NCBI GenBank assembly: GCA_963701315.1
Contig: OY969603.1
Coordinates: forward strand, 2,571,537-2,635,536
Direction of reading: 5' to 3'
Source: an uncultured Acidobacteriota bacterium
GTDB taxonomy: Bacteria > Acidobacteriota > Vicinamibacteria > Vicinamibacterales > Fen-181
DNA: 64,000 nucleotides
A program made the translations under genes and the position numbers. The notes below the pieces were generated by a model. It did not search any database and was not told the DNA's origin. It saw nothing but the letters and a program-made list of their open reading frames with translations. Below, in pieces: positions 2,808 through 58,012 of this stretch. The stretch's first letter is position 1. Each line of letters starts with the position of its first letter.

Positions 2808-5645
2808 ATGACCCGCTCCCCGCTGCACGAGGCGCTCGCCGCCATCGTGGGTGCCGAGGACGTGCTCACCCGGCCGATCGACCTAGCCGCGTACGCTTCG
2901 GACGCCAGCATCTACCGGATCGTCCCCGCGGCCGTCGTGCGCCCGCAGACCCCCGAACAGATCCCGACGGCTCTTCACGCTCTGCCGAGAGCGAGGTCAG
3001 TCGCTCACGTTCCGCGCGGCCGGAACCAGTTTGTCGGGGCAGGCGGTCACCGAGGGGATCGTGGCAGACCTGTCGCGGCACTGGCGCGACGTGGAGGTGC
3101 TCGACCGCGGGCGGCGCGTGCGCGTGGGCCCTGGTGTCGTCGGCGCGGCCGTGAACGCGCGGTTGCGGCCGTTCGGCGCGAAGATCGGGCCGGACCCGGC
3201 CTCGCTTCACGCGTGCATGATGGGCGGGATCCTGGCGAACAACTCGAGCGGGATGTGCTGTGGCGTGCTCCAGAACGCCTACCACACGCTCGACTCGCTG
3301 GTGTGCCTGCTCCCCTCGGGGACGCGCGTCGACACGGCGGACGCGTCCGCAGACGACGAACTCCGTCGCCTGGAGCCCGCGCTCGTCGACGGGCTGCTCG
3401 CACTGCGGCGCACGATCCAGGCGACTCCCGCCCTCTCGGACCGCATCCGGCACAAGTACCGGACGAAGAACACGACCGGCTACTCTCTCAACGCGTTGCT
3501 CGACTACGATCGGCCCGCCGACCTGCTCGCGCACCTCCTGATCGGATCGGAGGGTACGCTGGGGTTCATCGCCAGCGCCGTGCTCCGCACGGTCCCGGAT
3601 CTCCCGGTCAAGTACACGGGTCTGCTCCTCTTTCCCACCATGCGCGACGCCTGTGCGGCGATCGTGCCGCTGGCCAACGCCGGAGCCGCGGCGCTCGAGG
3701 TCATGGACCGCGCCGCGCTGCGTTCCGTGGACCACCAGAACGGCGTTCCCGCGGCCATTCGCCACCTGCCAGCTGAGGCGGCCGGGCTGCTGGTCGAGTT
3801 CCAGGCTGAGGGCGAGGACGCCCGGCCCGATTCCTCGAGCGTCGCGCTGGTGGCGCCGTCGGCCGGCTGGCGCTCGTCCAGCCCGCGGCCTTCACACACG
3901 CGCCGGACGAGCAGGCTCAATTGTGGAGGGTGCGACAGGGCATGTTTCCTTCGGTCGGGGCCGCACGGGCCCGGGGAACGGCGGTCATCATCGAGGATGT
4001 CGCCTTTCCCATCGACCGGCTGGCCGACGCCGTGGTCGACCTGCGCGCGCTGTTCGCCCGACACGGGTACGACGACGCCATCATCTTCGGCCATGCCAAG
4101 GACGGAAATCTCCATTTCGTCCTCAGCCAGTCGTTCGGCGACGGCACAGCCGTCGAGCAGTACCGCCGACTGATGGACGACGTGGTCGACCTCGTCGTCC
4201 GTCGGTACGACGGCGCGCTCAAGGCCGAGCACGGTACCGGCCGCAACATCGCGCCGTTTGTGGCCGCCGAGTGGGGGCCCGACCTGTACGCCGTCATGCG
4301 GCGCCTCAAGGACCTGTTCGATCCCGGCGCGGTGTTGAATCCCGGTGTCATCATCAGCGACGATCCCGCGGCTCATCTGGCCCACCTGAAGACACTGCCG
4401 GAGGTCGAAGAGGAGGTCGATCGGTGCATCGAGTGCGGGTACCGCGAGCCGCGGTGCCCCAGCCGGGACCTGACCCTGACGCCACGGCAGCGGATTGTCG
4501 TGCGCCGGGAGATGGAGCGCCTGAGGACGACTGACCGTGCGGCGGTGGCGGCGCTCGAGGCCGCCTTCGGCTACGACGCGCTCGACACCTGCGCGGCCGA
4601 TGGCCTGTGTGCCACCGCGTGCCCGGTCGGTATCGATACGGGCACACTCACCAAACGCCTCCGTGCGGCCCGCCACCTCCCGCTGGCCCATCGCGCGGCC
4701 TTATGGGTGGCGACCCATTTCACCCTCACGGAACGGGCCGTTCGGACCGGACTCCGGCTGGGTCGGATTGCCAGCCTCGTAGTCGGCGACGGCGTGCTCA
4801 CGAACCTCAGCCGGATCCCGCGACTCGTGCTGCGACGCCCCACCCCCTTGTGGCTTCGCCCGATGCCCCGCCCGGCGGGGACGGTGCGCGTGCCGACCCG
4901 CCGCGAGGGGGCGGTGGCGGTCTATTTTCCGGCGTGCGTGTCGCGGACCATGGGGGCGCTGCCGGGCGAGACGGAGGAACAGACGCTGGTCGCAACCTTG
5001 GTGCAGCTAGCCGCCCGCGCCGGCACGCCGGTCTGGATCCCGCCCGATGCCGAGGGTCACTGCTGCGGCGTACCCTTCTCCTCGAAGGGCTACGCGCACG
5101 CGCATCGCGCGATGGTCACGCGCACGATTGACAGCTTCTGGCGGTGGTCAGACGGGGGGCGACTGCCCGTCGTCTTGGATACGAGCCCCTGCGCCTACGG
5201 GCTCAAGCAGTCCCGGGAGACCCTCGACGCCGAGACCCGCGCGCGCTTCGATTGCCTCACGATCCTCGACAGCATCGAGTTCGTCGCGCGCACGCTGCTG
5301 CCGCGGCTCGACGCGCGCCACCGGGAGGCTCGAGTGGTGCTCCATCCGGTGTGTTCGGTGGTCAAAATGGGGCTCTCGGCCGACCTCGAGCGGATTGCAC
5401 GGGCCTGCGCGACTGACGTGATCGTGCCCATCGACGCCGGCTGCTGCGGGTTTGCCGGCGATTGGGGCTGGCTGGTCCCGGCGTTGACCGCGTCGGCCAC
5501 GACACGCGAGGCCGATGAGGTGCGGGAGATAGACGCGGGCGCCTACTCGAGCAGCCGCACGTGCGAAATCGGCCTCGCGCGCGCAACCGGCCGCGTGTAC
5601 CGGTCCTACCTGTTCCTGCTCGAGCGGGCAACGCGCGTCCCCTAG
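2808..5645 (+). CDS. FAD-linked oxidase fused to an Fe-S cluster-binding domain (D-lactate dehydrogenase / YdiJ-like); reading frame broken twice
   Basis: Three ORF pieces join into one about 945-aa protein: frame 0 from 2808, frame 1 covering 3031..4173, and frame 0 covering 3921..5645. Motifs are AYASDASIYRIVP, LTFRAAGTSLSGQAV, GSEGTLGFI, KAEHGTGRNI and CIECG...C. There is a +1 shift at about 2964 (cagatc+c) and a -1 shift at about 3820-3840. The total length of 2838 nt is a multiple of 3. Confidence 0.8.
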
Positions 5646-12222: not shown

Positions 12223-14079
12223 CTACCCGGCGGCGTTGACGCTCTCCCAGGGCTTGGGCCGCTCGCGGGCGGGCAGAACGCGCTTCCGCAGCCGGATCCC
12301 TCGGGGTGTGACCTCCACCAGTTCGTCGTCCTTGATGAACTCGATAGCCTGCTCGAGGCCGAGGACCCGCGGCGGCACCAGGCGGATCGCCTCGTCGGCG
12401 GTGGATGCCCGCATGTTGGTCTGTTTCTTCTCCTTCGTGACGTTCACGTCGAGGTCGTTGGGACGGGCGTTCTCCCCGACGATCATCCCCTCGTAGACCG
12501 TCGTCCCGGGCGCGATGAAGATCGCCCCCCGCTCCTGCAGGTTGAAGATCGCGTACGCCGTCGCCGAACCCGCCCGATCCGCCACCAGCGCCCCGGTCGT
12601 CCGGCTCGGGATAGGGCCGTGCCAGTGCTCCCACCCGGCGAACAGGTGGTTCATGATGCCGGTGCCTTTCGTGTCGGTCAGGAACTGCGAGCGGAGACCG
12701 ATCAGGCCGCGCGTCGGAATGCGAAACTCCAGGCGGACGCGGCCGCTGCCGTGGTTCACCATCTTCGTCATGACGCCGCGCCGCGACCCGATCTGCGCGA
12801 TCGCCACGCCCTGGAACTCCTCGGGCACATCGATCACGAGGTCCTCGACGGGTTCCACGGTGCGGCCCTCGATCTCCCGCGTGACGATCTCCGGGCGGGA
12901 CACTTCGAGCTCGTAGCCCTCGCGCCGCATCATCTCGATCAGAATCGAGAGCTGGAGCTCCCCGCGGCCCACGACCTTGATCCGTTCCGGCGACTCGGTG
13001 TCCTCGACGCGGATCGAGACGTTGCCCAGCAGCTCCTTCGCGAGCCGGTCCCGCAGGTTGCGCGAGGTCACGTACTGGCCCTCGCGCCCCGCCACCGGCG
13101 AGGTGTTCACGCCGAAGATCATCGAGACGGTGGGCTCGTCCACGGCGATCGGGGGAATCGCCTCCTGGTGCTCCACGTCGGCGATGGTCTCGCCGATGGT
13201 GATGTCCTCGATGCCGGCCAGGCAGATGATGTCGCCGGCCGCCGCCGCCTCGATGTCGACGCGCCGCAGGCCGTCGAACGCGAACAACTTGGTGACCCGC
13301 GTCGGGCGCACGCTGCCGTCGAGTTTGCAGACCGCCACGAGGTCGTCGATGCGGACCCGGCCGTTGAACACGCGCCCGATGGCGATTCGCCCCAGGTAGT
13401 CGTTCGAATCGAGGTTGGCGACCAGCACCTGGAGCGGCGCGTCGGCGTCCCCCCGCGGCGGCGGCACGTGCTGCACGATGGCGTCGAACAACGGGCGCAG
13501 ATCCGGCCCCTGCGCGGCCGGATCGGTGCTGGCGGTCCCCAATCGGGCGTTCGTGTAGAGCACCGGGAACTCCAGCAGGTCCTCCGGGGCGTCGAGGTCG
13601 ATGAACAGATCGTAGACCTCGTTGAGCACCTGCTGCGACCGGGCGTCCTTTCGGTCGATCTTGTTGATCACGACGATGGGCGGGAGGCGCCGCTCGAGCG
13701 CCTTGCGGAGCACGAAGCGCGTCTGCGGGAGCGGACCCTCCGACGCGTCGACGAGCAGCAGGACGCCGTCGACCATCGACAGCGTGCGCTCGACTTCACC
13801 GCCGAAGTCCGCGTGGCCTGGGGTGTCCACGATGTTGATCAGGTAGTCGTGGTAGTGGACCGCGGTGTTCTTCGCCAGGATGGTGATGCCGCGCTCCCGC
13901 TCGAGGTCGGTGTTGTCCATCACCCGCTCGGCCACCCGCTCATTGGCCCGGAATACACCCGACTGGCGCAACATTCCGTCGACCAGCGTCGTCTTCCCGT
14001 GATCGACGTGCGCGATGATCGCGACATTGCGACACCGCGGGTTGGCAATCGTAGACGGGCCCTTTCGGTGCATCGGCAT
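12223..14079 (-). CDS. typA: Translational GTPase TypA/BipA
   Basis: The G-domain motif [18 protein letters not shown] and full-length similarity to BipA are evident. The start is set at MPMHRKG (14079) rather than at the ORF maximum (14268). Confidence 0.95.
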
Positions 14080-14215
14080 CCGCCCAGTATACCAGCCGGG
14101 ACGGATGCTACGCCGCGCGCCGATCGGCAGCCGCTCGGGAAAGGAGGGCGAACGGGCTAGAATTGTGTGCGCGCGGGGCCCCCGCCACAGCGTGCCGCAC
14201 TCGCAGGAGGCCACC

Positions 14216-15002
14216 ATGGAGCAGCGCTCCCTTGGACAGACCGGCTTGACGGTAGGACGGCTCGGCATCTCCGCCAGCTACGGCGTGCCGGCCGGGGAGG
14301 TGGAACGGGCCGTCGAGGCCGGGATGACCTACCTCTACTACGGTTCGCTCCGCCGCCGGGGATTCACCGAGGCGATCCGGCACCTCGCTCCGCGGCGGTC
14401 CTCCTTCACGCTCGTCGTCCAGTCTGTACTCGCCGTTCGGATGGGGAGTCGTCCGGAGTCTCGAGCGGGCGCTCCGGTCGCTCAGGCTCGACCACGCCGA
14501 CGTGTTGCTGCTGGGGATGTGGAACCGGCAGCCGCCGGCGCGGGTGATGGACGCGTGCGCGGCGCTCAAGGCTCGTGGCCTCACCCGGTTCGTCGCGCTG
14601 TCCACCCACCGGCGCGCGCTCGTACCGGAGCTGGCCGCGAAGCGTGCGGGCATCGACATCTTCCATGTCCGCTACAACGCGGCTCACCGTGGCGCCGAGA
14701 CCGACGTGTTCGCGCGCCTTCCCGTCCAGCAGCGCCCGGGTATCGTCTCGTTCACCGCCACGTGCTGGGGCCGGCTCCTTGAGCCCCGGCGCACTCCCCC
14801 TGGCGACAGAACGCCCACCGCCGCGGACTGCTACCGGTTCGTGTTGACGAATCCCGCCGTCGACGTCTGCATGACCGGTCCGGCCTCTCGCACGCACGTG
14901 GAAGCCGCGCTGGAGGCGGCCCGCCTGGGCCCTCTGCCCCCAGTCGAGCTGGCCTGGATGCGACGGGTCGGTGACGCCGTTCACGGCGCGGCCCGCCGCT
15001 GA
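14216..15002 (+). CDS. Aldo/keto reductase; reading frame broken once
   Basis: [23 protein letters not shown]... continues as ...[22 protein letters not shown]...FVALSTH...[17 protein letters not shown] after a +1 shift beside GTAC at 14426-14429. The length is 3n+1. Confidence 0.75.
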
Positions 15003-47790: not shown

Positions 47791-50694
47791 CTACCGCCTC
47801 GCGGGCGCTCGCCGCGCCTGCTCCGCCTTGTCGCTGACGCGGCTACACGCGCGCTGAAATCTCGCCAACAGGGCGCGCCCCGCGGCCTCGGGCACGGGCC
47901 CCACGCGCTTCCAGGAGGCCTGGGCGCTGCGAACCTGTTCGACCATCGCCTTCCACTTCGCGGCGTCATCCGGGCGCCCCGCGATCGTGTTGTTCGCGAG
48001 GGCCTCCCGCAGCTGGCGCGCCAACAAGGTTGCCGGCGACTCGCCCGCCGTCGCCGATGGCCCGCCGTCCTCGACCGCCTTCGAGTCGGGCGCCGCCAGA
48101 CGCTCCACCTGCAGGCACAGGTCCTCGAGCGCGGCGAGGTTGGCCCTGACGTCCAAGTCCGTCCCGACGAAGGGAGCGGGCCAAGCCTCGGCCACACGGG
48201 TGAGCGCGTGCTGGAACCGATCCCCCAGGCGGGTGGCGCGCTCGCGCGGCAGGGCTGGCGCGACCTCGCCGAACCGCTGGCGACACTCCCGCACCCGATC
48301 GGCGAGTCCCTCCGGGACGTCCGGGGCACCCTCGCCGGCCGCCGGCAGCAGCTGTTCCAGCGCCTCGCAGGCGGTCTCCGCGGTCGACACGGACGAGGAG
48401 GTCGCCAGCTGGTCTCGCTGCTGGTATCGCTCGAAGAACGTGTCGCAGGCGGATCGGAAACGCTGCCAGATCTGGTCGGACCGGCTCTTGCGCACCGGAC
48501 CGACCGCCTTCCAGTCGGCCTGGAGTCGCTTGACCTCCTCGAGGCCCTTCTGCCACTCCGTCGTTCCGGCAAGCGCCTCGGCCTGCTGGCAAAGGGCCTC
48601 CTTGCGCGCCAGGTTCGCCGACCACTCCTCCTTGCGCTTCTGCAGGTCCTCGCGCCGACGCGTGAAGAACAGGTCGCACGCAGCGTGGAACCGATCCCAG
48701 AGCACCTTCTCGTCGGCCCGCGGCGCCGGGCCGGCAGCCTTCCAGTCGGCCTGGAGGGCCTTGATCGCCTCGGCGGTCTGAATCCAGTTGCTGGAGCCCG
48801 ACAACGACTCAGCCTGTTCGCACAGCGCCTGCTTGCGCGCCCGGCTCGCGGCCTGCGCTTCGGCGATCTGTGCAAAGTAGGTGTCGCAGCGGGCTCGCAC
48901 CGCATCGCAGGCGGTCTTGAAGCGGAGCCACAGCGCCTGCGACTGGCTGCGCGGCGCGATGGCGACCCGCTTCCACTGCGCCTGGGCGTCGCGCAGCTGC
49001 GCGGCGGCGGCGGCCAGGTCCTCGAGCTGCGCCAGAGCCTCGACGCGCTGGCACAGCTCCTCCTGGAGCCCCGCATTCGCCCACCGCTGCCATTCGTCCA
49101 GGTCGCGCAGTTCCTGGACCTTCGGAGACAATGCCGCACCGGCGCGTTTGAGGCGGTCGGTGACCTGGTCGTGGTCCTGGCGGGTCGGCAGCACCCCCAT
49201 GTCGTCCAACGCCGCTCTCGCGTCGCGCAGCCCTCGTTCGGCCTGTTTGAGCGTCAGGGCCGGCGAGCCTGCCATCGCCTCGAGCTCGGCGCACAGCGCC
49301 TGAAGCCTGACGAGGTGCTCCTGCTGCTCCCGCGCGCGGCGGTCGCGGGCCTCGGCCTCGCGAGCACGGAGTTGCGTCTCGGCCGCGTTGGCGCGCGCCA
49401 GGAGCCCCGCGTCGTCACAACCGGCGCCCACCAGCTCCTGCCAGGCCCGTCGAACTTCATGGGCCCTGGTTCGTTCGCTGCGCTCGGCGAGGGCAGACCC
49501 CGCCAGGCGCTCGAGTTCCGCGCACACGGCTTCGGCCCGTTCCCGCGTCGCCCGCTGCCGGGCGAGCGCCGCGTGGCGCGTCTCAGCCCCGCGGCACGCT
49601 TCCGCAAAGCGCTGCTGCCAACGGGCGGCCTCGGCAGCGTCCGCCATGGGCGCCAACGCCGCCCAGGCTGCCCGGGCTGCCGCGAGGTCGGCGACGGTCT
49701 CCTCACCGCCACTCGAGTCCGCCTGATCGCACACCGCACGGCGCGCGGCAGCCGCCTCCGCGTTCGCTCGAAGCGCCCGCGCCCGCTCGGCGCGTTCCTC
49801 AGCCTGTTGGGCCAGGGCCCGGCTCGCCACCTCCCGCGCCGCCTGGAACCGCGCGGCCATCTCGGGGCCGGAGTCCGCACCCAGGGCCAGCCAGTCCCGA
49901 TCGATCTCGGAAAGGACCGCGTCGCCCTCGTCCGACCCGGCACCCGGAAGTGCCTCGAGGCGCTCACACAGCGATGCGGCCGTGCGCCGTCGACTCTCCA
50001 TCGCCGCCTGCTCGGCGTCCTCGTGCGGCGCCGCGGTGGCCGCCGCTTCGTCGATTCCAAACTGGCGCGCCAGTGCGCGGGCCCGCTTGGAGGCCGTCCG
50101 GTTCTTCGCGCGGGCCGCCACGTCCTCGAGCATGGTCCGGTCGGACAGCCGCTCCACCGCCGCGAGCGCCACGTCCTTGAAATCCGACCGGACGGCCACG
50201 GCCGCCAGTTCCGTCGGCGACGCGATCCGGCGCAACGCCTCGAGACGGATCGCCGCATGCCCGGCCTTTCGCGCAACCGCCCCCAGGCCGACGTCGTCGG
50301 GAACCCGCGCCAGGGCGGCTTCGGCCACCTCCGCGCTGGCCGCCCCGCGCGCGACCGCCACCAGGTGCCTCGACTCCGTGAGGCCGGTGAGTGCCGCGAA
50401 GCTCTCCGCCTGGGTGGTCCCTTCAAACGCGCCCAGCGCCAGGTCGACCAGCAACGCGACCGCCTCGTCGCGGACGCGGGCGTCGGGGTCGGATTGGCTG
50501 ACCGCGGCGATGGTCGCAGGATCGATCACCTTCTTGATCGCGGCGATCCGGACGCCTGGGTCCCGGTCTTCCCGAGCGACCCACGCGAGCGTGTCCTGCT
50601 GGTCGAGCGGGAGCTGCTCCACGGCCGTGGTCCGGACGGCCGGGTTGGCGTGTTTCCATCGGGGCTGGGCGCGGAAGTGGTCGAGCAGACCCAT
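47791..50694 (-). CDS. DUF349 repeat protein with an N-terminal HEAT-like region
   Basis: Repeated units read W..F...C D.FF.RR...W..N...KE.LC..AE.L (for example LWDRFHAACDLFFTRRREDL...KEALCQQAEAL). A GGAGG ribosome-binding site lies upstream of ATG 50694. Confidence 0.85.
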   Translation of the reverse strand: MGLLDHFRAQPRWKHANPAVRTTAVEQLPLDQQDTLAWVAREDRDPGVRIAAIKKVIDPATIAAVSQSDPDARVRDEAVALLVDLALGAFEGTTQAESFAALTGLTESRHLVAVARGAASAEVAEAALARVPDDVGLGAVARKAGHAAIRLEALRRIASPTELAAVAVRSDFKDVALAAVERLSDRTMLEDVAARAKNRTASKRARALARQFGIDEAAATAAPHEDAEQAAMESRRRTAASLCERLEALPGAGSDEGDAVLSEIDRDWLALGADSGPEMAARFQAAREVASRALAQQAEERAERARALRANAEAAAARRAVCDQADSSGGEETVADLAAARAAWAALAPMADAAEAARWQQRFAEACRGAETRHAALARQRATRERAEAVCAELERLAGSALAERSERTRAHEVRRAWQELVGAGCDDAGLLARANAAETQLRAREAEARDRRAREQQEHLVRLQALCAELEAMAGSPALTLKQAERGLRDARAALDDMGVLPTRQDHDQVTDRLKRAGAALSPKVQELRDLDEWQRWANAGLQEELCQRVEALAQLEDLAAAAAQLRDAQAQWKRVAIAPRSQSQALWLRFKTACDAVRARCDTYFAQIAEAQAASRARKQALCEQAESLSGSSNWIQTAEAIKALQADWKAAGPAPRADEKVLWDRFHAACDLFFTRRREDLQKRKEEWSANLARKEALCQQAEALAGTTEWQKGLEEVKRLQADWKAVGPVRKSRSDQIWQRFRSACDTFFERYQQRDQLATSSSVSTAETACEALEQLLPAAGEGAPDVPEGLADRVRECRQRFGEVAPALPRERATRLGDRFQHALTRVAEAWPAPFVGTDLDVRANLAALEDLCLQVERLAAPDSKAVEDGGPSATAGESPATLLARQLREALANNTIAGRPDDAAKWKAMVEQVRSAQASWKRVGPVPEAAGRALLARFQRACSRVSDKAEQARRAPARR

Positions 50695-50763
50695 GACGAC
50701 TCTTTGTACCTCCAGGACGACGATCCCGGATGTTGCGGTGGTAGCAGCCGCGCGAGCGGCAGG

Positions 50764-50788
50764 AAGTTATGTAGTTTACTATATAGTT
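50764..50788. promoter_or_regulatory. AT-rich patch with the palindrome CTATATAG in a divergent intergenic region (candidate promoter/operator)
   Basis: AAGTTATGTAGTTTACTATATAGTT is the most AT-rich stretch I noticed in the window. It sits between the divergent DUF349 (start 50694) and M14 (start 50837) genes and contains TATAGT/TACTAT -10-like hexamers. Confidence 0.35.
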
Positions 50789-50836
50789 CCCACCATGCGG
50801 CGCTCACGCGCCGGCCGTCCCAGAAAGGACTCTTCG

Positions 50837-53504
50837 ATGCGCATCCGCCGCCTTGCGGTCATCGCCCTGCTCTGCCTCGGCCTCCCGTTTCACCCGCCCG
50901 GGGAGCGGCTCCAGGCCCGCAGCGTGCCTGGACAGCTCGCCTCCGCCGTTCCGACGCCGGAGCAGTTCCTCGGCTTCCCGGTCGGCGCCGACAACAAGCT
51001 GGCCCGCTGGGACAAGATCGTCGCCTACCTGCAGGCGGTGGCCGAGCGCTCGCCGCGCGTCAGGGTCCGCGAACTGGGGAAGACGACCCGAGGCAACAGC
51101 TTCATCGCCGTCGAGGTCGGCGCGCCGGACACGCTGGCTCACGTCGACCGGGTCAAGCAGCTCCAACGTCGGCTCTACTTCCAGGGCGGCGTCCCGACGG
51201 CGGCCGAGCGCGACGAGATCTTCGGTGCCGCCAAGCTCGTCGTCCTGGTGACGTGCAACATCCACTCGACCGAGATCGGCGCCTCGCAGATGGTGCTCGA
51301 CCTGGTGTACCGCCTGGCCACCGACGACTCGGCGCGCGTGCGCAAGATCCTGGACAACGTCGTCCTCGTCCTCGTGCCGAGCCTGAATCCCGACGGCCAG
51401 ATCATGGTGGTCGACTGGTTCAACAAGAACCTCGGCACCGAGTTTGACGGGAGCCCGATGCCCTGGCTCTACCACCCCTACGTCGGGCACGACAACAACC
51501 GCGACATGTACATGTTCACCCAGAAGGAGAGCCAGCTCGCCGCACGGCTGCTCTGGCACGACTGGTTCCCGACCGTCTGGCTCGACGAGCATCAGCAAGG
51601 CAGTTCCGGCGCCCGGATCTTCGTCATGCCCGCGACCGACCCCATCAACCCCAACGTCCACCCGCTGATCTACCGGTGGAACGGGATCCTCGGCCAGGCG
51701 CAGGCGGCCGCGCTCGAGGCAGCGGGCAAAGACGGGATCATCTACAACTCCACCTACACGAACTTCTGGGAAGGCGCGATGGCGTGGAGCGGCTGGTGGC
51801 ACAACGAGGTCGGGCTCCTCACCGAGGTGGCGAGCGCCCGCGTCGCGGCCCCCCTCGAGCAGCGTCGGGCGACGCCGGGCGCCTCCGTCCCGCCCGAACC
51901 CGACAGCCCGGAGGGCCGGCGCGCCCCCGACACGCCCGGCGGACCGCTGCCGCCACCGCGTGACATCACGCCGCGTACCGAATACCCGAGGCCCTGGATG
52001 GGTGGCCGATGGACGCTCCGCGACATCGTCGACTACGAACTGATTGCGACCATGGGCCTGCTCGAAACCGCCGCTGATCAACGCGAGGCGCTGCTCCGGC
52101 AGATCTACGAGGTCAACCGGGTCACGGTCGAGAACAGCGACAAGGGTGCCATCCTGATCCCCGTCGGGAGCCAGTTCGATCCGCGAGCCGCCGTGCGGTT
52201 GGCCGAGAAGCTCCAGTTGGGCGGTGTCGAGGTCTGGCGCGCCGGAAACGCCTTCGAGGCCGACGGCCGACGCTACGAGGAAGGTACGCTGGTCGTGCCC
52301 CTGGCCCAGGTGTTTGCCCGGTACGCCAAGGACCTGCTGGAGCGGCAGACCTACCCGGAGGTCCGCCGCACGCCGGCCTCGCCCCCGGAACCCCCCTATG
52401 ACGTCACGGCCTGGTCGCTCGGCATGCTCATGGGGGCCGACGTCGTCTTCGTGAAACAGGCCGTGCCTTCTGACGCCAAGCTCGCCAGGTTGGCCGACGT
52501 CCCCTTGCTGCCGGGCCGCGTGCACGGCAGCGGCACGCGCTTCCTCTTCGACTACCGGGGACCGGACACGGCCCTCGCCATCAACCGCCTGCTCAAGGAG
52601 GGCGCGAGAGTGACGCTCGAACGCAGGGGCGCGGGGGCCGAGGTCGGCGTGACCCTCGTGACGCGCCCGCGGATCGAGGCCCTCGCGTCGCAGCTCGGCT
52701 TGGACGTGCGGGCAGTGGCCCCGGGGCGGCCGCCCGCCGGCCGCGACCGGGAGCTGGTGCTCAAGCCCCCACGGGTCGGCCTCTATCAGAGTTGGACCGC
52801 CAACCTGGACGAGGGCTGGACGCGGTGGGTCCTCGAACAGTGGGAGTTCGCCCCGAACACCTTGCACAATACGGACATCCGGGCCGGACACCTCCACGGG
52901 CAGTACAGACGTGATCGTGCTGCCCGACGAGCCGCCCCGGGACATCCTCGACGGCAACGACGCCCGGACCACGAGACCCGAGTACCGGGGCGGCATCGGC
53001 GAGGAGGGGCTTCAGGCGCTCAAGTCGTTCGTCGCGGACGGTGGCACGCTGGTCACCCTCGGGGCGAGCACGGGTCTGGCGATCCAGAAGTGGCCGATCC
53101 CCATCCGCGACATCAAACGCGGCCTCACGCGCGACCAGCACTTCGCGCCCGGGACGATCGTGCACGTCCAGGTCGACACCGCCAATCCGCTCTCATACGG
53201 CGTGCCGACCGACACCTACGGGTTCTACAACAACAGCCCGTTCTTCGACGTGGTCGGCGGGTTCCCGTCCCAGCGGGTGTCGGTCGTCGCGCGCTATCCG
53301 AACACCGACGTGGTCGCCTCCGGGTGGCTCAGGGGCGAGGACCTGATGACCGGCCGCGCCGCCGTCGTCCAGGTGGACCTGAATCCCGGATGCCTGCTGC
53401 TGTTCGGCCTCCGGCCGCAGCACCGCGCGCAGACCCAGGCGACGTTCCCACTGCTGTTCAACGCGCTGTACCTGGCCGCTGCAACGGCCCCGCCGGCGCC
53501 GTAG
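50837..53504 (+). CDS. Large secreted M14 family metallocarboxypeptidase-like protein (paralog 2); reading frame broken once
   Basis: The signal peptide is MRIRRLAVIALLCLGLP. The HxxE motif sits in TCNIHSTEIG, followed by VGHDNNRD. ...NTDIRAGHLHGQY joins DVIVLPDEPPRDIL... (ORF 52911..53504) after removing the base that follows GTAC 52903-52906. Confidence 0.85.
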
Positions 53505-53584
53505 CCGTTCGCGCCTGGCGAAGACGCCGATTGCTCGACCGTCCCGGCGGGGGGCGTCCGAGGGAGGCCCCCACCGCATCGGCT

Positions 53585-54077
53585 ATGCTAGACGAGATGA
53601 TCAACCCACCTGCGTCGTCGAGCGTGCAGGAACAGGTACGCGCCGCACAGCATCTGCTTCGGCTGCGGGCCGGCCAACCCACAGGGTCTCCGGATCCGCA
53701 GCTTCCCGTCGGGCGAGGAGATGGTCGCCGTCTGGACGCCGGCCCCCCACCATCAGGCGTTCGAGGGCGTCATCAATGGCGGGATCATCGGCACGCTGTT
53801 CGACTGCCACTGCAACTGGACGGCGGCCTGGCACCTGATGAAGCGCGCTCAGGCCGACGCGCCCCCCGCGACGGTCACGGCCGATTACGCCGTGCGTTTC
53901 AAACGCCCGGCGCCTGCCGGCGGTCCTCTCACGCTCCGCGCGCACGCGGTCGAGATCAGGGACGACCGCGCCACCATCGAGGCGACGCTCGAGGCCAACG
54001 GCGCGGTGTGTGCGACCTGCCGCGGCACGTTCGTGGCCGTCCGGCCGGACCACCCCGGCTACCACCGGTGGGACTGA
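53585..54077 (+). CDS. PaaI-family (hotdog fold) thioesterase; N-terminus uncertain (possible frame break)
   Basis: ICFGCGPANPQGLRIRSFPSGEEMVAVWTP...GVINGGIIGTLFDCH is a PaaI-type core. The nearest ATG (53585) is in another frame and joins if one base is removed at GCATC 53650-53654. Confidence 0.65.
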
Positions 54078-54134
54078 GTCGCGGAGCGGGCGCGCCGCGA
54101 CGAGCCCGGGCACATCGGGGTCAGGAGGCAGTAC

Positions 54135-54476
54135 GTGAAGAACCTTGATTGGATCGAAGAACTGCCGGCGTCGGTCACCGTGACCGATGCCTCGGGAACC
54201 ATCGTGGCCATGAACGCGCAATCCCGCGCCGTCTTCGCGGCCGATGGCGGCGGGGCGCTGGTCGGCAAGAGCCTGTTCGACTGCCATCCCGGGGCGGCGC
54301 GGCAGAAGGCCGAGGTGCTCTACGCGCGGCGGCAAGCCAACCACTACACCATCCGGAAGGCCGGCCAGAAGAAGATGATTCACCAGGTCCCGTATTTCGC
54401 GGGAGGCGTCTTCGCCGGCTTCGTCGAGATCTCGGTGCCGATCCCGGACGACCTGCCTCATTTCGACCGGGGCTGA
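54135..54476 (+). CDS. Small stand-alone PAS domain protein
   Basis: An AGGAGG ribosome-binding site and a GTG start precede LPASVTVTDASGTIVAMNAQSRAVF...GKSLFDCHP, a PAS-like fold of 113 aa. Confidence 0.65.
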   Translation: MKNLDWIEELPASVTVTDASGTIVAMNAQSRAVFAADGGGALVGKSLFDCHPGAARQKAEVLYARRQANHYTIRKAGQKKMIHQVPYFAGGVFAGFVEISVPIPDDLPHFDRG

Positions 54477-54523
54477 GCACGTGCTGGCCGGCGGGATGGC
54501 GGACGGCGAGGTGACCGCGCGCG

Positions 54524-55039
54524 TCAGTGGAGCGCCTTGAGCATCATGGCGACCAAGGCGTCCTTCCCGGCCCGGCCCATGTGGCGCTCCACGATGGTCC
54601 CGGCGCGGTCGATCACGAGCGTCGCCGGCACCATGCCGGGCAGTCCGTACCGGGCGTTGATGGCATCGTAGTCCGGTGCGTCGTAGATGAGCACGGGCGC
54701 GTCGATCTTGTGGGCACCCACGAAGTCCCGCATCTGCCGCACGACCTCCTCCCGGGTGACGCCCGGCACCATCAGGTCGTAGGACACCGTCAGGACGACG
54801 CCTCCGCGGTCCTTGAACTCGCGGCCGACCTCGAGCAGCGCCGGCAGCTCGTCCACGCACGGCTCGCACCAGATGGCCCAGAAGTTCAGGAGCACGCCCT
54901 GTCCGCGGTGCCCCGCCAGGGCCGCGTCGAGGGTGGCGAGGTCGACGACGCGGACGTCTGGCTCGGCCGCCCGCGGCCACTCAGGCAGGACCGCGACGAC
55001 GAGCGAGAGCACGAGTCCAATGACGAGGCGAGGAGTCAT
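54524..55039 (-). CDS. TlpA/ResA-type periplasmic thiol:disulfide oxidoreductase
   Basis: An N-terminal TM or signal segment is followed by the CxxC active site in LLNFWAIWCEPCVDELP. Confidence 0.85.
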   Translation of the reverse strand: MTPRLVIGLVLSLVVAVLPEWPRAAEPDVRVVDLATLDAALAGHRGQGVLLNFWAIWCEPCVDELPALLEVGREFKDRGGVVLTVSYDLMVPGVTREEVVRQMRDFVGAHKIDAPVLIYDAPDYDAINARYGLPGMVPATLVIDRAGTIVERHMGRAGKDALVAMMLKALH

Positions 55040-55055
55040 GAATACCCGGTGACGA

Positions 55056-55072
55056 CCCTCTGGACCAGAGGG
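55056..55072 (-). promoter_or_regulatory. SECIS-like stem-loop candidate downstream of an in-frame UGA
   Basis: The mRNA sequence is CCCUCUGG-U-CCAGAGGG, an 8+8 inverted repeat that effectively forms a 6-bp stem with a GGUCC loop. It starts 15 nt after UGA 55090-55088. No U-tract follows, and it lies inside a same-strand gene pair. Confidence 0.3.
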
Positions 55073-55675
55073 TTATCGCTTGATGGATCAACCGTAGGGT
55101 TGGGTGGCCGTGACGGCCACTGGCTTGCCCGCCAGCAAGGCCTCAATGGCGTCGCGCACGTACGCCCGGGCCTCTGAGCCCTTGCTCCCACGCGGATCGT
55201 CATCGAGCGCCCCGCTGTAACGGAGCACGCCGTCGCGGTCGATGACGAAGCAGTGCGGCGTGCTGGCCCCGCCGAGCACGTCGGTCAGCTTGTTGCCGGG
55301 GTCGACGGCCACCAGGAAGTTCACGCCGGCCTTCGCCATGTGGTCGCGAAGATTCGCGTAGGCGGCGCCACCCTCAGCGAGCTCGTTCTGGTTGGCGTCG
55401 ACACCGATCTGCACGACGCCCTGGTCGGCGTACCGCTTCTGCAACTCAATGAACTTCGGCTCGGCCGCCCTCTCGGACGGACAGACGATCGAGTAGAAGT
55501 GAATGAAGACGATCCGGCCTCGGAGCTCGCCGAACGGGCGGGCCTTCCCGTCGAGGTCCGTGATCACGGCCTCTTTCGGCACAACCGACCCGACCTCGAC
55601 AGGCGGGGACGCTGTCGCTGCGACCGGCAGCCGCAGGCCCAGCATCAAGGCGCCGACGAGGAGCGGCGTGACCAT
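55073..55675 (-). CDS. Secreted thioredoxin-fold protein with an in-frame TGA (candidate Sec codon) four codons before TAA; otherwise ends at 55088
   Basis: A GGGAGGA ribosome-binding site and ATG 55675 are followed by a signal peptide. Motifs are IVFIHFYSIVCPSE, TPHCFVIDRDGVLRYSGALDDDPRG and AIEALLAGKPV...TQPYG-TGA-SIKR-TAA. The TGA aligns with the Cys of the family's C-terminal G-C-[NS]-I-K motif (recalled from memory). Confidence 0.7.
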
Positions 55676-55749
55676 GAATCGATGTCCTCCCGCTCTCCAT
55701 GATACCGCGCGCATGCCACCGGCCGCTGTGGGGGGGCGAGCAGACCGGC

Positions 55750-56260
55750 TCAGGCGCCTTCCAGCCTGAATTCGGTGTAGTCGAACCAGAACCCCAGACC
55801 CGTCAGCGCGTCAATCTCGGCCTGCACGATGGCCTCGTGGCCAGCCTCGATCTCCACGAAGCGGGCGAAGAGCTTCTGTTCCTCGTTCTTGAGCTGCCCG
55901 ACCATGTCCCGGAAGAACGTGGTGGCGGCGATTTCCAGCGCCAGCGCCTTCTTCAGCATCTCCAGCTCGACGCCGAAATCCTGTTCGGACATCCGCTTGC
56001 CGAGCTTGGCGAGCGCGCCGTCGATGGCGTCGCGGGACGGAATCGCGGTCTCCAGCGCTGCGGCCGTGACGGCCCCGGTCCGCTCCCATTCCTCCAACCG
56101 GCTCTCCAGGTACTGCAGGTGCCGGTCCTCCTCGTCGGCCAGCACGCCGAAGATCTTCCGCGCCACCGGATCCTTGAACTTCTTCGCCGCCTCCGAGTAC
56201 CACGTGGCGCACCTCGAGCTCGTACTCGATCCCAGTCTTGATGGCCTGTTCGATCGTCAC
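55750..56260 (-). CDS. Rubrerythrin/ferritin-like diiron protein; reading frame broken once
   Basis: A GGAGG ribosome-binding site and GTG 56260 precede VTIEQAIKTGIEYELEVRHV. This joins YSEAAKKFKDPVARKIFGVLADEEDRHLQYL...EIEAGHEAIV after a +1 shift beside GTAC 56197-56200. The ExxH motifs are present. Confidence 0.7.
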
Positions 56261-56443
56261 CCTGCGCACCTCCTCTCCCCCTTGTGCGCTCCATGATACC
56301 GCAGAGCGCGGGGGGGCACCGGCCGATCGGGCGGGCAAGAAACCGCCCGCGTCCGGCGCGGGTCGGCTATCATACCGGTCGTTCGCGCCGGCCGAACTCC
56401 GACGTCGGAGTGTCGGTGCTCGCCCCTGCGCGCATCGAGCGCC

Positions 56444-58012
56444 ATGGCCTCACCCCTGCTGCCGCCGGTCGACCGAACGCTGTCGTGGCTCGACGCGGTG
56501 TTCAATCAGGCTCGGGACGCCGTCTTCGTCAGCGACGAGAACGGTCAGGTCGTCGACGTGAACCGGGCGGCGTGCACCCTCACCGGCTACTCGCGCGCGG
56601 AACTGCTCCAGCTGCGGATCCCGCAGCTCCTCCGGGACGGGGACACAGCCGCGCTCTGTGCCATCCACCAGCGCATCCTCGCGGGTGAGGAAACGGTCAC
56701 TGAGGCCCAGGTCCTCCGCCGCGACGGCACGAGTGTCGACGTCGAGTTCAACAACCGCCGCCTGGTCGTCGACGGCGTGCGATACCGGCACACGAGTGCC
56801 CGCGACCTCACCGACCGCCGCCAGGCCGAACGCGGGCGCCTGGCCCTCGAAGCCCGCATCCAACAGGTCCAGAAGCTCGAGAGCCTGGGAGTGCTGGCGG
56901 GCGGGATCGCGCACGACTTCAACAACCTGCTGGTCAGCATTCTGGGGAACGCGGGCCTCGCGCTGATGGACCTGCCCGCCGACTCGCCGGCCCGGGCGAA
57001 CCTGCGCGAGATCGAAGTGGCCGCCCTGCGGGCGAGCGAGCTGACCAAACAGATGCTGGCCTATTCGGGCAAGGGCCACTTCCTCGTCCAGCCCCTCGAC
57101 CTGTCCCAGGTCGTCGGCCAGATGGACGCGCTCCTTCGGTCCTCGGTGCCCCCGGACACCGGGCTGACGCTGGACCTGGCCGCCGGGCTCCCGCCCGTCC
57201 TGGCCGACCTGGCGCAGCTCGGGCAGGTGTTGATGAACCTGGTGACCAACGCGTCGGACGCGCTCTCGAAGGGCCGGGGCCAGGTCTCCATCGCCACGTT
57301 CACGGGACCGATGGACCGGGCGGCGCTCTCCGCGACCTACCTGGACGACAACCTGCCGGCGGGGCCCTACGTGATGCTGCAGGTGCGCGATTCGGGGTGT
57401 GGGATGGACGCCGCGACCCGGACACGCGTCTTCGACCCGTTCTTCTCAACCAAGTTCCCCGGCCGCGGGCTGGGCATGGCAGCGGTGCTCGGCATCGTCC
57501 GCGGGCACCGCGGCGCGATCCGGGTGGAGAGCGAGACGGGCCTGGGCACCACCGTCACCGTTTTCTTCCCGGCCCTCGCGGAAACCGCCGCGCGGGCCGA
57601 GGCGAGCGAAGGCCTGCAGCACACGCGCGGCCTCGTGCTGGTCGTGGACGACACCGAGGCCGTGGCCACGGTGGCCGAACGCGTATTGAGGCGAGCCGGC
57701 TACGACGTGCAGGTGGCCCGGTCGGGCGAGCGGGCCCTGGAACTGTTCGCGGAGCGGGCGGGCGACATCTCGGTGGTCCTGCTCGACCTCTCGATGCCCG
57801 GCATGGACGGCCTGGAGGTGCTCGAACGGCTTCGCGCCGCGCGGCCCGATCTGCCCGTGCTGCTGTCGAGCGGGTTCCAGGCCCCGAACCCGCAGGCGCT
57901 CGAAGGGCGGCGCGTCAGCTACCTGCAGAAGCCGTATCAGGCCGCGCTGCTCGTCGAGCGCATCGAACAGGCCGTCGCGGCAACCACGCCGCGGCTGCCG
58001 CTCGACGGCTGA
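56444..58012 (+). CDS. PAS sensor hybrid histidine kinase / response regulator
   Basis: Domains in order are PAS (VFVSDENGQVVDVNRAA), HisKA (LAGGIAHDFNNLL), HATPase (DSGCGM...GRGLGM) and REC (VLVVDDTEA...LLDLSMPGMDG). Confidence 0.9.
   Translation: MASPLLPPVDRTLSWLDAVFNQARDAVFVSDENGQVVDVNRAACTLTGYSRAELLQLRIPQLLRDGDTAALCAIHQRILAGEETVTEAQVLRRDGTSVDVEFNNRRLVVDGVRYRHTSARDLTDRRQAERGRLALEARIQQVQKLESLGVLAGGIAHDFNNLLVSILGNAGLALMDLPADSPARANLREIEVAALRASELTKQMLAYSGKGHFLVQPLDLSQVVGQMDALLRSSVPPDTGLTLDLAAGLPPVLADLAQLGQVLMNLVTNASDALSKGRGQVSIATFTGPMDRAALSATYLDDNLPAGPYVMLQVRDSGCGMDAATRTRVFDPFFSTKFPGRGLGMAAVLGIVRGHRGAIRVESETGLGTTVTVFFPALAETAARAEASEGLQHTRGLVLVVDDTEAVATVAERVLRRAGYDVQVARSGERALELFAERAGDISVVLLDLSMPGMDGLEVLERLRAARPDLPVLLSSGFQAPNPQALEGRRVSYLQKPYQAALLVERIEQAVAATTPRLPLDG

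Follow-up and report, generated by a model that had tools for sequence, protein, structure and literature searches.

A candidate selenoprotein of the PRX_like1/PrxL type with an in-frame UGA near its C-terminus in Acidobacteriota and Planctomycetota

Redox proteins of the PRX_like1/PrxL group (cd02969) are known from Caulobacter crescentus, whose exported PrxL (CC0220) carries two cysteines distant in sequence that form a disulfide in vivo, is kept reduced by the envelope reductive pathway through ScsB and showed no detectable peroxidase activity (PMC3322552). Members of cd02969 are without the catalytic Thr/Arg context of peroxiredoxins (Cho et al., 2012; PMC3322552), and in 2YWI, a relative of known structure, the C-terminal Cys has been treated as resolving-Cys-like (Pawlowski et al.; PMC3091736). 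In a 64-kb stretch of DNA from an uncultured Acidobacteriota bacterium, which was analysed as a whole and is called the window below, we find a gene whose product has the same architecture by published description, i.e., an exported thioredoxin fold with two distant redox residues and no Prx Thr/Arg context. However, PrxL has Cys at both redox positions, whereas the codon for the C-terminal one is UGA in the window gene. PrxL is moreover linked genomically to scsB, while the conserved neighbour of the window gene is TlpA-like and no membrane transporter is adjacent. We consider it very probable (roughly 0.88) that the gene product is an exported 200-residue selenoprotein with a thioredoxin fold of the PRX_like1/PrxL type, in which UGA is read as Sec196 and the chemistry involves Cys65 and Sec196.

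The window gene and its fold

The gene lies on the minus strand and starts with ATG at 55675-55673, in agreement with the N-termini of homologues, 9 nt downstream of a Shine-Dalgarno-like GGGAGGA (55685..55691, read from the sequence). A second possible start, ATG 55714, is located upstream. The open reading frame translates as ...IVFIHFYSIVCPSE...TPHCFVIDRDGVLRYSGALDDDPRG...TATQPYG and then reaches TGA at 55090-55088, where the public annotation ends a 195-aa product with G195 as its last residue. The same frame continues with S-I-K-R (TCC ATC AAG CGA) to a TAA at 55075-55073 (tail and true stop together 55073..55087), and the proposed full coding sequence (55073..55675) thus comprises 200 codons with U as residue 196. 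Ribosome-binding site, start, TGA, in-frame tail and TAA had all been described in this way in the original prediction and were confirmed from the sequence.

A profile search against the PDB retrieved 2YWI (Geobacillus kaustophilus), 3U5R (Sinorhizobium meliloti SMc02350) and 2CVB (Thermus thermophilus, also 2YWO) with E-values of 1.6e-26 to 1.9e-20, and the same three structures were the top hits of Foldseek (TM about 0.8), making them the best matches by profile and by fold. For a Cys-form orthologue, AlphaFold gives a model with a pLDDT of 89 and an ordered C-terminal segment (pLDDT 91-98). In the window protein itself, Pfam recognises Redoxin, AhpC-TSA and, weakly, DUF6436. The fold is therefore a thioredoxin/Prx-like one closest to 2CVB, 2YWI and 3U5R, as in PRX_like1/PrxL (cd02969), and both residues by which we assign the protein to this group, the second Cys of the CxxC position and the C-terminal G-C-x-I-K, are conserved. 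Assignment to the true peroxiredoxins (PxxxTxxC plus catalytic Arg) was rejected, since I-H-F-Y-S-I-V-C has no Pro at -7, and T-P-H-C-F keeps the cis-Pro loop without an Arg.

The sole active-site Cys of the window protein, Cys65, is encoded at 55481..55483 (minus strand) within H-F-Y-S-I-V-C-P, where S-x-x-C replaces CxxC. The residue is invariant across the family, and the single Cys in S/N-x-x-C is a family-wide feature. The three structural relatives are Cys proteins with about 22-26% identity; 2YWI and 2CVB retain the full CxxC, and 3U5R has S-N-R-C-P, like the single-Cys motif of the window family. The alignment with all three reaches the C-terminus, placing their G-C-[SNT]-I-K on the family's G-[U/C]-x-[IV]-K; in the profile search Y-G-[U/C]-x-I-K falls on iGCSIK (2YWI), iGCNIK (3U5R) and iGCTIK (2CVB). 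G-C-x-[IV]-K is present in at least 81 of 150 representatives of 50% clusters, and residue 196 corresponds to a column that holds only C or U throughout the family. The homologue pattern given in the original prediction, with the TGA on a conserved Cys, was thus correct. That a Cys-Sec redox pair would make chemical sense, as had been suggested as well, fits both the family-wide single Cys and the distant-Cys disulfide of Caulobacter PrxL; Cys65 and Sec196 would then be expected to lie close together in three dimensions.

The codon after P-Y-G across related loci

We compared the codon following the conserved P-Y-G in 126 related loci from genomes and metagenomes of Acidobacteriota and Planctomycetota. 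It is TGA in 103 loci, TGC or TGT in the remaining 23, and TAA or TAG in none, with the same picture in genomes (35 TGA, 13 TGY, no TAA/TAG) and metagenomes (68 TGA, 10 TGY, no TAA/TAG); as the loci are not phylogenetically independent, kinship inflates these raw counts, which overstate the number of independent events. In 23 orthologous loci, as in the PDB relatives, the column of the in-frame UGA is therefore a Cys, the pairing typical of Sec/Cys families, and the expectation that homologues carry a Cys at this position was borne out.

These counts bear directly on the simplest reading of the locus, according to which TGA really terminates translation, G195 is the last residue of the mature protein, and the conserved 3' sequence and hairpin serve mRNA stabilisation, processing or coupling to the TlpA-like gene. 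Every gene caller does end the protein at this TGA, and 228 of 240 database homologues are annotated with their end exactly at [YF]G and hence without the probable catalytic residue. TGA is also an ordinary stop in the window, whose coding-like ORFs end in 13 TGA, 14 TAG and 1 TAA. But a genuine stop would be expected to drift among the three stop codons, as the true (second) stops of the TGA loci do (31 TGA, 30 TAG, 6 TAA), and here TGA is found in 103 out of 103 non-Cys loci and is replaced by Cys codons only. The four codons behind it keep x-[IV]-K-[RK] as their amino-acid pattern despite synonymous variation, like the tail of the Cys forms, with ATC, GTC or GTG at +2, AAG or AAA at +3, and CGC, CGT, CGA, AGA or AAG at +4. 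UGA is thus retained in two phyla with coding conservation continuing 3' of it, and the orthologues do not, as a plain stop would have it, run out into unconserved sequence. The conserved tail is consistent with translation past the UGA. Together with the behaviour of the hairpin described below, this leaves a genuine stop as a very unlikely explanation.

A local nonsense mutation from TGC to TGA, or a sequencing or assembly error, in what would be an incipient pseudogene, has even less in its favour. It would take a single-base change, the assembly appears to have indel artefacts elsewhere, and gene calls differ between related long-read MAGs. The same TGA is found, however, in 102 other loci from two phyla, and also in an independently assembled Logan contig (99.68% identical), in which TGA and hairpin are identical and the tail differs only by a synonymous TCC>TCG. 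This verifies the TGA base. The upstream reading frame, in addition, is intact and under purifying selection, with homologues of 55-73% identity that keep all key motifs. The original prediction had listed a plain nonsense change as its own alternative; the other loci and the independent assembly effectively refute it, and we give it next to no weight. Two other candidates for in-frame TGA in the window (54075+, 19170-) turned out to be adjacent genes sharing a frame.

The hairpin downstream of the TGA

The 33-nt intergenic spacer behind the true stop houses the palindrome CCCTCTGGTCCAGAGGG (55072-55056), which had been predicted to form a SECIS-like hairpin. The palindrome is indeed present, but the single-nucleotide loop originally drawn for it is sterically impossible. 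It folds instead as ACCCUCUG-GUC-CAGAGGGU (55055..55073, minus strand), i.e., 8 bp closed by the triloop GUC, which can equally be drawn as 7 bp around GGUCC, with 22 nt from UGA to loop and -11.6 kcal/mol. The hairpin shares its first base with the end of the true stop codon, and the ATG of the next gene follows at 55039. With these values it satisfies the published constraints for bacterial SECIS elements, which ask for a loop of 3-9 nt, a stem of 4-16 bp, G in the first two loop positions, a distance of 16-37 nt from UGA and an MFE <= -7.5 kcal/mol (PMC13188914, Fig. 2). A role as intrinsic (rho-independent) terminator was rejected, as the hairpin is followed by CGUCACCGGGUAUUC and has no U-tract, which such a terminator combines with a GC-rich hairpin; a terminator scan does not flag it either, in line with the original prediction.

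Taken alone the window hairpin is intergenic and unremarkable, as a genuine stop would allow. Comparable hairpins number ten in the 64 kb, where Markov simulations give 8.8; a TGA lies upstream of three of them (1.6 expected), and the fold z-score of -1.65 is not statistically unusual by itself. Rfam returned nothing relevant, neither for the whole window at gathering threshold nor for 54990-55140 at E<=10, a search that is uninformative on SECIS elements because Rfam has no general bacterial SECIS model. The signal is overwhelming only when the 126 related loci are compared. In these, the loop is C-GUG-N or G-GUC, and the bSECIS constraints are passed by 75 of 94 TGA loci but by just 3 of 22 loci with Cys, which are generally without the hairpin. 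In two Cys loci (L021 and L058) the switch to Cys appears to be recent and the hairpin is still present.

Stem positions are paired in 93.9% of cases, as compared to 42-51% when the partner is slid. All seven pairs show compensatory changes, with a covariation score of 0.887 vs 0.27 that was reached in 0 of 500 shuffles; since the loop-centred segments were chosen for best pairing, Cys loci treated alike and an unselected alignment served as controls for this score. RNAalifold recovered the same helix from the unselected segments, with compensatory changes in 6 of 6 pairs. The proposed check against SECIS models thus ended in its favour, by the published constraints and by strong covariation among related loci. 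The distance between UGA and hairpin is 25.0 ± 2.4 nt, whereas that between true stop and hairpin is 3.3 ± 16.1 nt, and in nine loci the hairpin is located within the extended reading frame. Its placement tracks the UGA, and neither the true stop nor the next start. Both this and its loss where the codon is Cys argue against a hairpin that serves a genuine stop or the downstream gene.

Possible decoding, redox partners and known selenoproteins

Selenium insertion at residue 196 is what the sequence comparisons point to. Decoding of UGA 55090-55088 as Sec196 would fall to SelB with Sec-tRNA(Sec), which the stem-loop located 22 nt 3' of the codon would recruit. With no more than four codons behind the UGA, the bacterial SECIS would be placed immediately 3' of the true stop, within the spacer that separates the two genes, and would act through its distance from the UGA, with no need for its own translation.

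Of the genes for this machinery, neither selA, selB and selD nor tRNA-Sec was found in the 64-kb window (of a 7.04-Mb genome) or in related loci totalling about 0.5 Mb. For the proteins, E. coli SelA, SelB and SelD were used as tblastn queries against the window and 57 loci, and the sole SelB-like match was TypA/BipA (933 bits for TypA vs 67 for the selB model). ARAGORN gave no tRNA-Sec in the window or the related loci; the only tRNA-like call nearby, a 91-nt 'tRNA-Thr' at 56731-56821(-), is a false positive, being antisense in a histidine-kinase ORF with a poor cloverleaf and no Rfam support. This absence from the available sequence would suit a genuine stop and equally a hairpin-aided recoding of UGA to a residue other than Sec, either Cys via a selC*-type tRNA or another amino acid via a suppressor allo-tRNA. 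Such systems exist, as tRNA-Sec-like allo-tRNAs that are possible nonsense suppressors occur in Acidobacteria, and a selC* tRNA-Cys(UCA) with a dedicated SelB* is found in delta-proteobacteria (Mukai et al., PMC5389517). But selC* has not been reported from Acidobacteria or Planctomycetes (PMC5389517), Sec decoding is documented in some Acidobacteria, and the hairpin is of the canonical SelB type, its small apical loop containing G-U and lying at a distance of 16-37 nt from the UGA. A partner gene in the same cassette, furthermore, has the classical UxxC selenoprotein pattern in seven loci. We regard non-Sec recoding as still less probable than a genuine stop; if true, in genomes without a complete Sec pathway, it would constitute a natural SECIS-dependent recoding to a non-Sec residue in a new phylum.

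If UGA is read as Sec, Cys65 (in S-x-x-C-P) and Sec196 (in the ordered C-terminal P-Y-G-U-x-I-K) would most likely form a selenenylsulfide redox pair, with Sec196 probably the attacking nucleophile and Cys65 its resolving partner. Where Sec and Cys replace each other in nature, Sec is normally found at the catalytic redox position, and the Cys of the C-terminal G-C-x-I-K may therefore represent a key residue of the whole PRX_like1/PrxL family.

Directly downstream and co-oriented lies a gene (54524..55039, minus strand) for a TlpA/ResA-like thiol-disulfide oxidoreductase (AhpC-TSA/Redoxin, ResA subfamily) with W-C-E-P-C and an N-terminal hydrophobic segment. Of 48 loci, 42 have a TlpA-like gene downstream in the same orientation, and in the seven loci mentioned above, from Planctomycetota, its product is itself UxxC. 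We propose that this conserved partner is the reductant of the selenoprotein. The oxidised selenoprotein would be recycled in the cell envelope by the co-transcribed TlpA-like CxxC protein (UxxC in some lineages), electrons presumably flowing from the partner to the selenoprotein, and a membrane electron transporter of the CcdA/DsbD/ScsB type, encoded elsewhere, would feed the partner; no such gene is located within ±10 kb in either phylum. The arrangement suggests a two-component selenium-dependent redox relay of the envelope. Upstream, a co-oriented rubrerythrin/ferritin-like gene (55750..56166, minus strand; weak Pfam match) may be the first gene of the selenoprotein's transcription unit; as a neighbour it is not conserved in the family.

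Selenoproteins with a thioredoxin fold are well known. Prx (TxxU), Prx-like thiol:disulfide oxidoreductase (UxxC), Redoxin (UxxC) and UGC-containing TlpA selenoproteins share the superfamily PF00578/PF08534 with the window family (PMC13188914; PMC2398784), as well as recoding by UGA plus a downstream bSECIS and a truncated or missed annotation, and the seven UxxC partner genes belong to the classical UxxC class. However, these known proteins carry Sec in the N-terminal CxxC/TxxC motif, whereas the window family has Ser there and would carry Sec at the distant C-terminal Cys. With S-I-V-C and Sec at residue 196 the window protein does not belong to the known Redoxin, Prx-like or TlpA selenoprotein families. 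It is recognised by no model of NCBIfam release 20 (WAxxUGC_long scores 15.7 bits vs a cut-off of 300 bits), and an inventory from May 2026, with 119 selenoprotein families and subfamilies (PMC13188914), does not list the family motif. If confirmed, this would be a widespread new selenoprotein family, present in soil, sediment, freshwater and marine metagenomes and missing from both resources, and its hairpin a natural, well-sampled bacterial SECIS that acts from just past the true stop, the same element being translated in some lineages.

Sec a few residues from the C-terminus, as proposed here, is known from UXX-star, GUXX-star and KCU-star and from mammalian thioredoxin reductase (GCUG-COOH), and this position requires the SECIS to lie at or beyond the true stop. 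The C-terminal Sec of thioredoxin reductase forms a selenenylsulfide with its Cys that shuttles electrons. The C-terminal-Sec models NF041114, NF041211, NF041212 and NF033934 do not match the window protein. The folds of these families and of thioredoxin reductase are unrelated to that of the window protein, in which the partner Cys is about 130 residues off rather than adjacent, and thioredoxin reductase, unlike the window gene, uses a eukaryotic SECIS in the 3'-UTR. Judged by these comparisons, the window gene most likely belongs to a selenoprotein family that has apparently gone undescribed, is common among bacteria of soil and aquatic habitats, and would combine the exported fold and distant redox pair of PrxL with a C-terminal Sec.

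An in-frame TGA at a cysteine column

Direct reading of the window bore out the description of the minus-strand ORF exactly: a ribosome-binding site (GGGAGGA, 55691-55685), an ATG at 55675, and a product with a hydrophobic N-terminus followed by ...HFYSIVCPSE...TPHCFVID...GALDDDPRG...TATQPYG, after which the frame meets a TGA (55090-55088) and continues as TCC ATC AAG CGA TAA (S-I-K-R-stop, TAA at 55075-55073) ahead of the next minus-strand ATG at 55039. The start at 55675 has the ribosome-binding site and agrees with homologue N-termini, yet leaves a signal peptide without a positive n-region; an alternative ATG at 55714 (-) would add MRAVSWRAGGHRF, a source of positive charges. The product matches the Pfam families Redoxin and AhpC/TSA, with a weaker DUF6436 match extending beyond the TGA, and has no specific model in NCBIfam release 20.

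With the read-through product as query, 291 homologues were retrieved, and all those inspected terminate in ...T[KRE]PYG; among database proteins, 228 of 240 finish at [YF]G, the other 12 continuing as YGC plus a tail. The DNA compared covered 80 metagenome loci and 56 genome loci, the latter from Planctomycetota and Acidobacteriota, Vicinamibacterales among them. The codon following P-Y-G was TGA in 35 genome loci (window included) and 68 metagenome loci, TGC or TGT in 13 and 10, respectively, and TAA or TAG in none of either set. The tail of these TGA loci is itself terminated by TGA in 31 cases, TAG in 30 and TAA in 6. Since coding-like ORFs in the window stop at 13 TGA, 14 TAG and 1 TAA, UGA serves as an ordinary stop here, without genome-wide reassignment.

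A family profile aligned to PDB sequences reaches the C-termini of 2YWI, 3U5R and 2CVB, where the Cys within iGCSIK, iGCNIK and iGCTIK occupies the TGA column, as had been predicted from the homologue pattern. Five 50%-cluster representatives (P0250, P0275, P0276, P0294, P0326) have R, G or N at this column of G-[C/U]-x-I-K (e.g., YGRRIER, WGRSIE, YGGPTRF); these could be non-redox forms or results of TGA>CGA/AGA/GGA changes.

The tail is likewise conserved in frame, related loci reading x-[IV]-K-[RK] after the TGA to match C-[SGA]-[IV]-K-[RK]... of the Cys forms, with synonymous variety at Ile/Val (ATC/GTC/GTG), Lys (AAG/AAA) and Arg (CGC/CGT/CGA/AGA). The same TGA and hairpin recur in L057, a contig from an independent assembly (Logan ERR11594402) that matches the window at 99.68% identity across 3.1 kb, which confirms the base; within the gene this contig differs by two substitutions, both third-position and synonymous, one of them in the tail (TCC>TCG). 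Nine loci (L031, L035, L039, L042, L086, L107, L118, L119, L122) have long, very basic tails of 7-28 residues (e.g., SLPRAGNKNGKKKRRNRRNRRDK), in which the hairpin is itself translated, still 20-26 nt from the UGA.

The downstream hairpin

The palindrome CCCTCTGGTCCAGAGGG (55072-55056, -) had been drawn with a 1-nt loop, which is impossible; the actual fold is ACCCUCUG-GUC-CAGAGGGU, an 8-bp stem at 55073-55055. Taken by itself, the window is unconvincing: 10 comparable stem-loops occur in its 64 kb vs 8.8 in first-order Markov simulations, 3 are preceded by a suitably spaced TGA vs 1.6 expected, the local fold has z = -1.65, and Rfam, which has no general bacterial SECIS model, gave no relevant match. 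It is the comparison of related loci that carries the case.

Every TGA locus has a stem-loop with an apical loop C-GUG-N (commonest), C-GGG-N or G-GUC, and the stems differ widely in sequence. Centring 28 distinct sequences on the loop gave an alignment with 93.9% paired cells, vs 42-51% with the 3' partner slid by 1-3 columns; all seven pairs show compensatory changes, and the covariation score of 0.887 (0.27 shuffled) was reached by none of 500 shuffles. Because these segments had been picked for best pairing, an unselected set was tested as well: when the stretch from the TGA to +48 nt was aligned with MAFFT, RNAalifold recovered the same helix, with compensatory changes at 6 of 6 pairs. 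Identical hairpin-picking on Cys loci yielded 0-5 pairs. In related loci the distance of the hairpin is 25.0 ± 2.4 nt when counted from the UGA, vs 3.3 ± 16.1 nt when counted from the true stop.

Its proposed SECIS-like character holds, the window hairpin (GUC loop on an 8-bp stem, UGA distance 22 nt, -11.6 kcal/mol) falling within published bSECIS constraints (PMC13188914); in a strict perfect-stem implementation so do 75 of 94 TGA loci vs 3 of 22 Cys loci. Two of these three belong to one lineage that has TGT and retains the hairpin (GUCUCCC-GUG-GGGAGAC, -10.3 kcal/mol, spaced from the codon as elsewhere; L021 ~3160-3200, L058 ~1815-1860), apparently a recent Sec-to-Cys switch with a leftover SECIS.

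A terminator, already doubted in the original prediction, finds no support: the hairpin lacks a U-tract and was not flagged by a terminator scan. The sole terminator-like site in 54400-56400 lies at 56346-56362 (-), directly upstream of a rubrerythrin-like gene, which fits a three-gene transcription unit of rubrerythrin-like, selenoprotein and TlpA-like genes.

Selenocysteine or another recoding

Codon, tail and hairpin comparisons together support the selenoprotein interpretation, and we put the probability that this gene genuinely encodes Sec at nearly nine in ten. Selenocysteine use has been documented for some Acidobacteria, not specifically for the genome of the window, and neither the window nor the related loci contain selA, selB, selD or tRNA-Sec; the window's only match to a SelB query (12223-14268, -) is TypA/BipA (TIGR01394, 933 bits). 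Acidobacteria carry tRNA-Sec-like allo-tRNAs (PMC5389517), which leaves a small probability that the residue inserted at the UGA is not Sec. As such allo-tRNAs are ~90 nt long, we examined a 91-nt tRNA-Thr(GGT) called by ARAGORN at 56731-56821 (-). Most likely the call is spurious: it lies antisense within a PAS/histidine-kinase/receiver ORF (56444-58012, +), with acceptor-stem mismatches, no canonical T-loop and no Rfam tRNA or tRNA-Sec match.

Two other single in-frame-TGA joins in the window are not selenoproteins: at 54075 (+) a 4HBT thioesterase and a PAS protein are adjacent in the same frame, and at 19170 (-) an unknown protein shares its frame with an adjacent M48 peptidase that has its own signal/TM start. 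The M14-peptidase region (49982-54148, +) forms a single ORF of 1388 aa whose N-terminal part is odd and of low complexity. For the syntenic genes of two related long-read MAGs (L138 vs L139), gene calls give lengths of 726 vs 1439 aa and 718 vs 1316 aa, mismatches which suggest that these assemblies contain indel or frameshift artefacts, as initially suspected.

Proposed redox partner and relation to known selenoproteins

Sec and Cys forms share the hydrophobic N-terminus, a lone active-site Cys in H-F-W-S-x-x-C-P, the T-P-H-C-F cis-Pro loop, G-A-L-D-D-D-P and P-Y-G-[U/C]. G-C-x-[IV]-K is present in at least 81 of the best 150 representatives of 50%-identity clusters, and ~20 stop at YG; nearly all have S or N at the first "CxxC" position and only three have C, so that the family's invariant pair is one active-site Cys and one C-terminal Cys/Sec. 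Some Cys forms of ~340 aa (P0161, P0167, P0169, P0198; L018, L036) have an extra N-terminal thioredoxin-like domain fused (Thioredoxin_7/DUF255-type Pfam matches). The AlphaFold model of a Cys-form orthologue (pLDDT 89.3; 91-98 across the C-terminal segment) is closest to the uncharacterised solved structures 2CVB/2YWO, 2YWI and 3U5R; Pawlowski et al. (PMC3091736) saw the C-terminal Cys of 2YWI as resolving-Cys-like. The only experimentally studied relative found in the literature, Caulobacter PrxL (cd02969), is exported and forms a disulfide between two sequence-distant Cys that ScsB keeps reduced; it showed no detectable peroxidase activity (PMC3322552).

The window's downstream gene (54524-55039, -) is TlpA/ResA-like with W-C-E-P-C (Pfam, NCBIfam). 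Of 48 loci, 42 have a co-oriented TlpA-like gene with W-C-[AEGPV]-P-C downstream, the sole neighbour conserved across Acidobacteriota and Planctomycetota. By analogy with Caulobacter, where TlpA reduces PprX, we propose that this partner reduces the selenoprotein, which would itself cycle through a Cys65-Sec196 selenenylsulfide; a redox pair served by such a relay is plausible. In seven Planctomycetota loci (L014 and L015, both 3571-4140; L022 3679-4248; L035 ~2060-2717; L039 ~3680-4278; L042 ~3720-4218; L050 ~3650-4173) the partner has an in-frame TGA at its first CxxC Cys (W-U-G-P-C, W-U-A-P-C, W-U-I-P-C, W-U-S-S-C or T-U-A-P-C), the classical UxxC pattern. Both genes are thus candidate selenoproteins there; this turns the cassette of these lineages into a double-selenoprotein operon and independently supports Sec decoding in them.

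A C-terminal G-U-x-I-K is found neither among the motifs of 119 prokaryotic selenoprotein families and subfamilies (May 2026 inventory), where the Prx, Prx-like, Redoxin and TlpA entries always have Sec in an N-terminal UxxC/UGC/TxxU motif, nor among the GOS subfamilies (PMC2398784). Together with the NCBIfam result this indicates, as compared by listed motifs, a new family within the bacterial thioredoxin-fold selenoproteins. UXX-star and KCU-star likewise have Sec near the C-terminus, but are unrelated families; the new one is unusual in the position of its Sec and in having the SECIS at the true stop codon.
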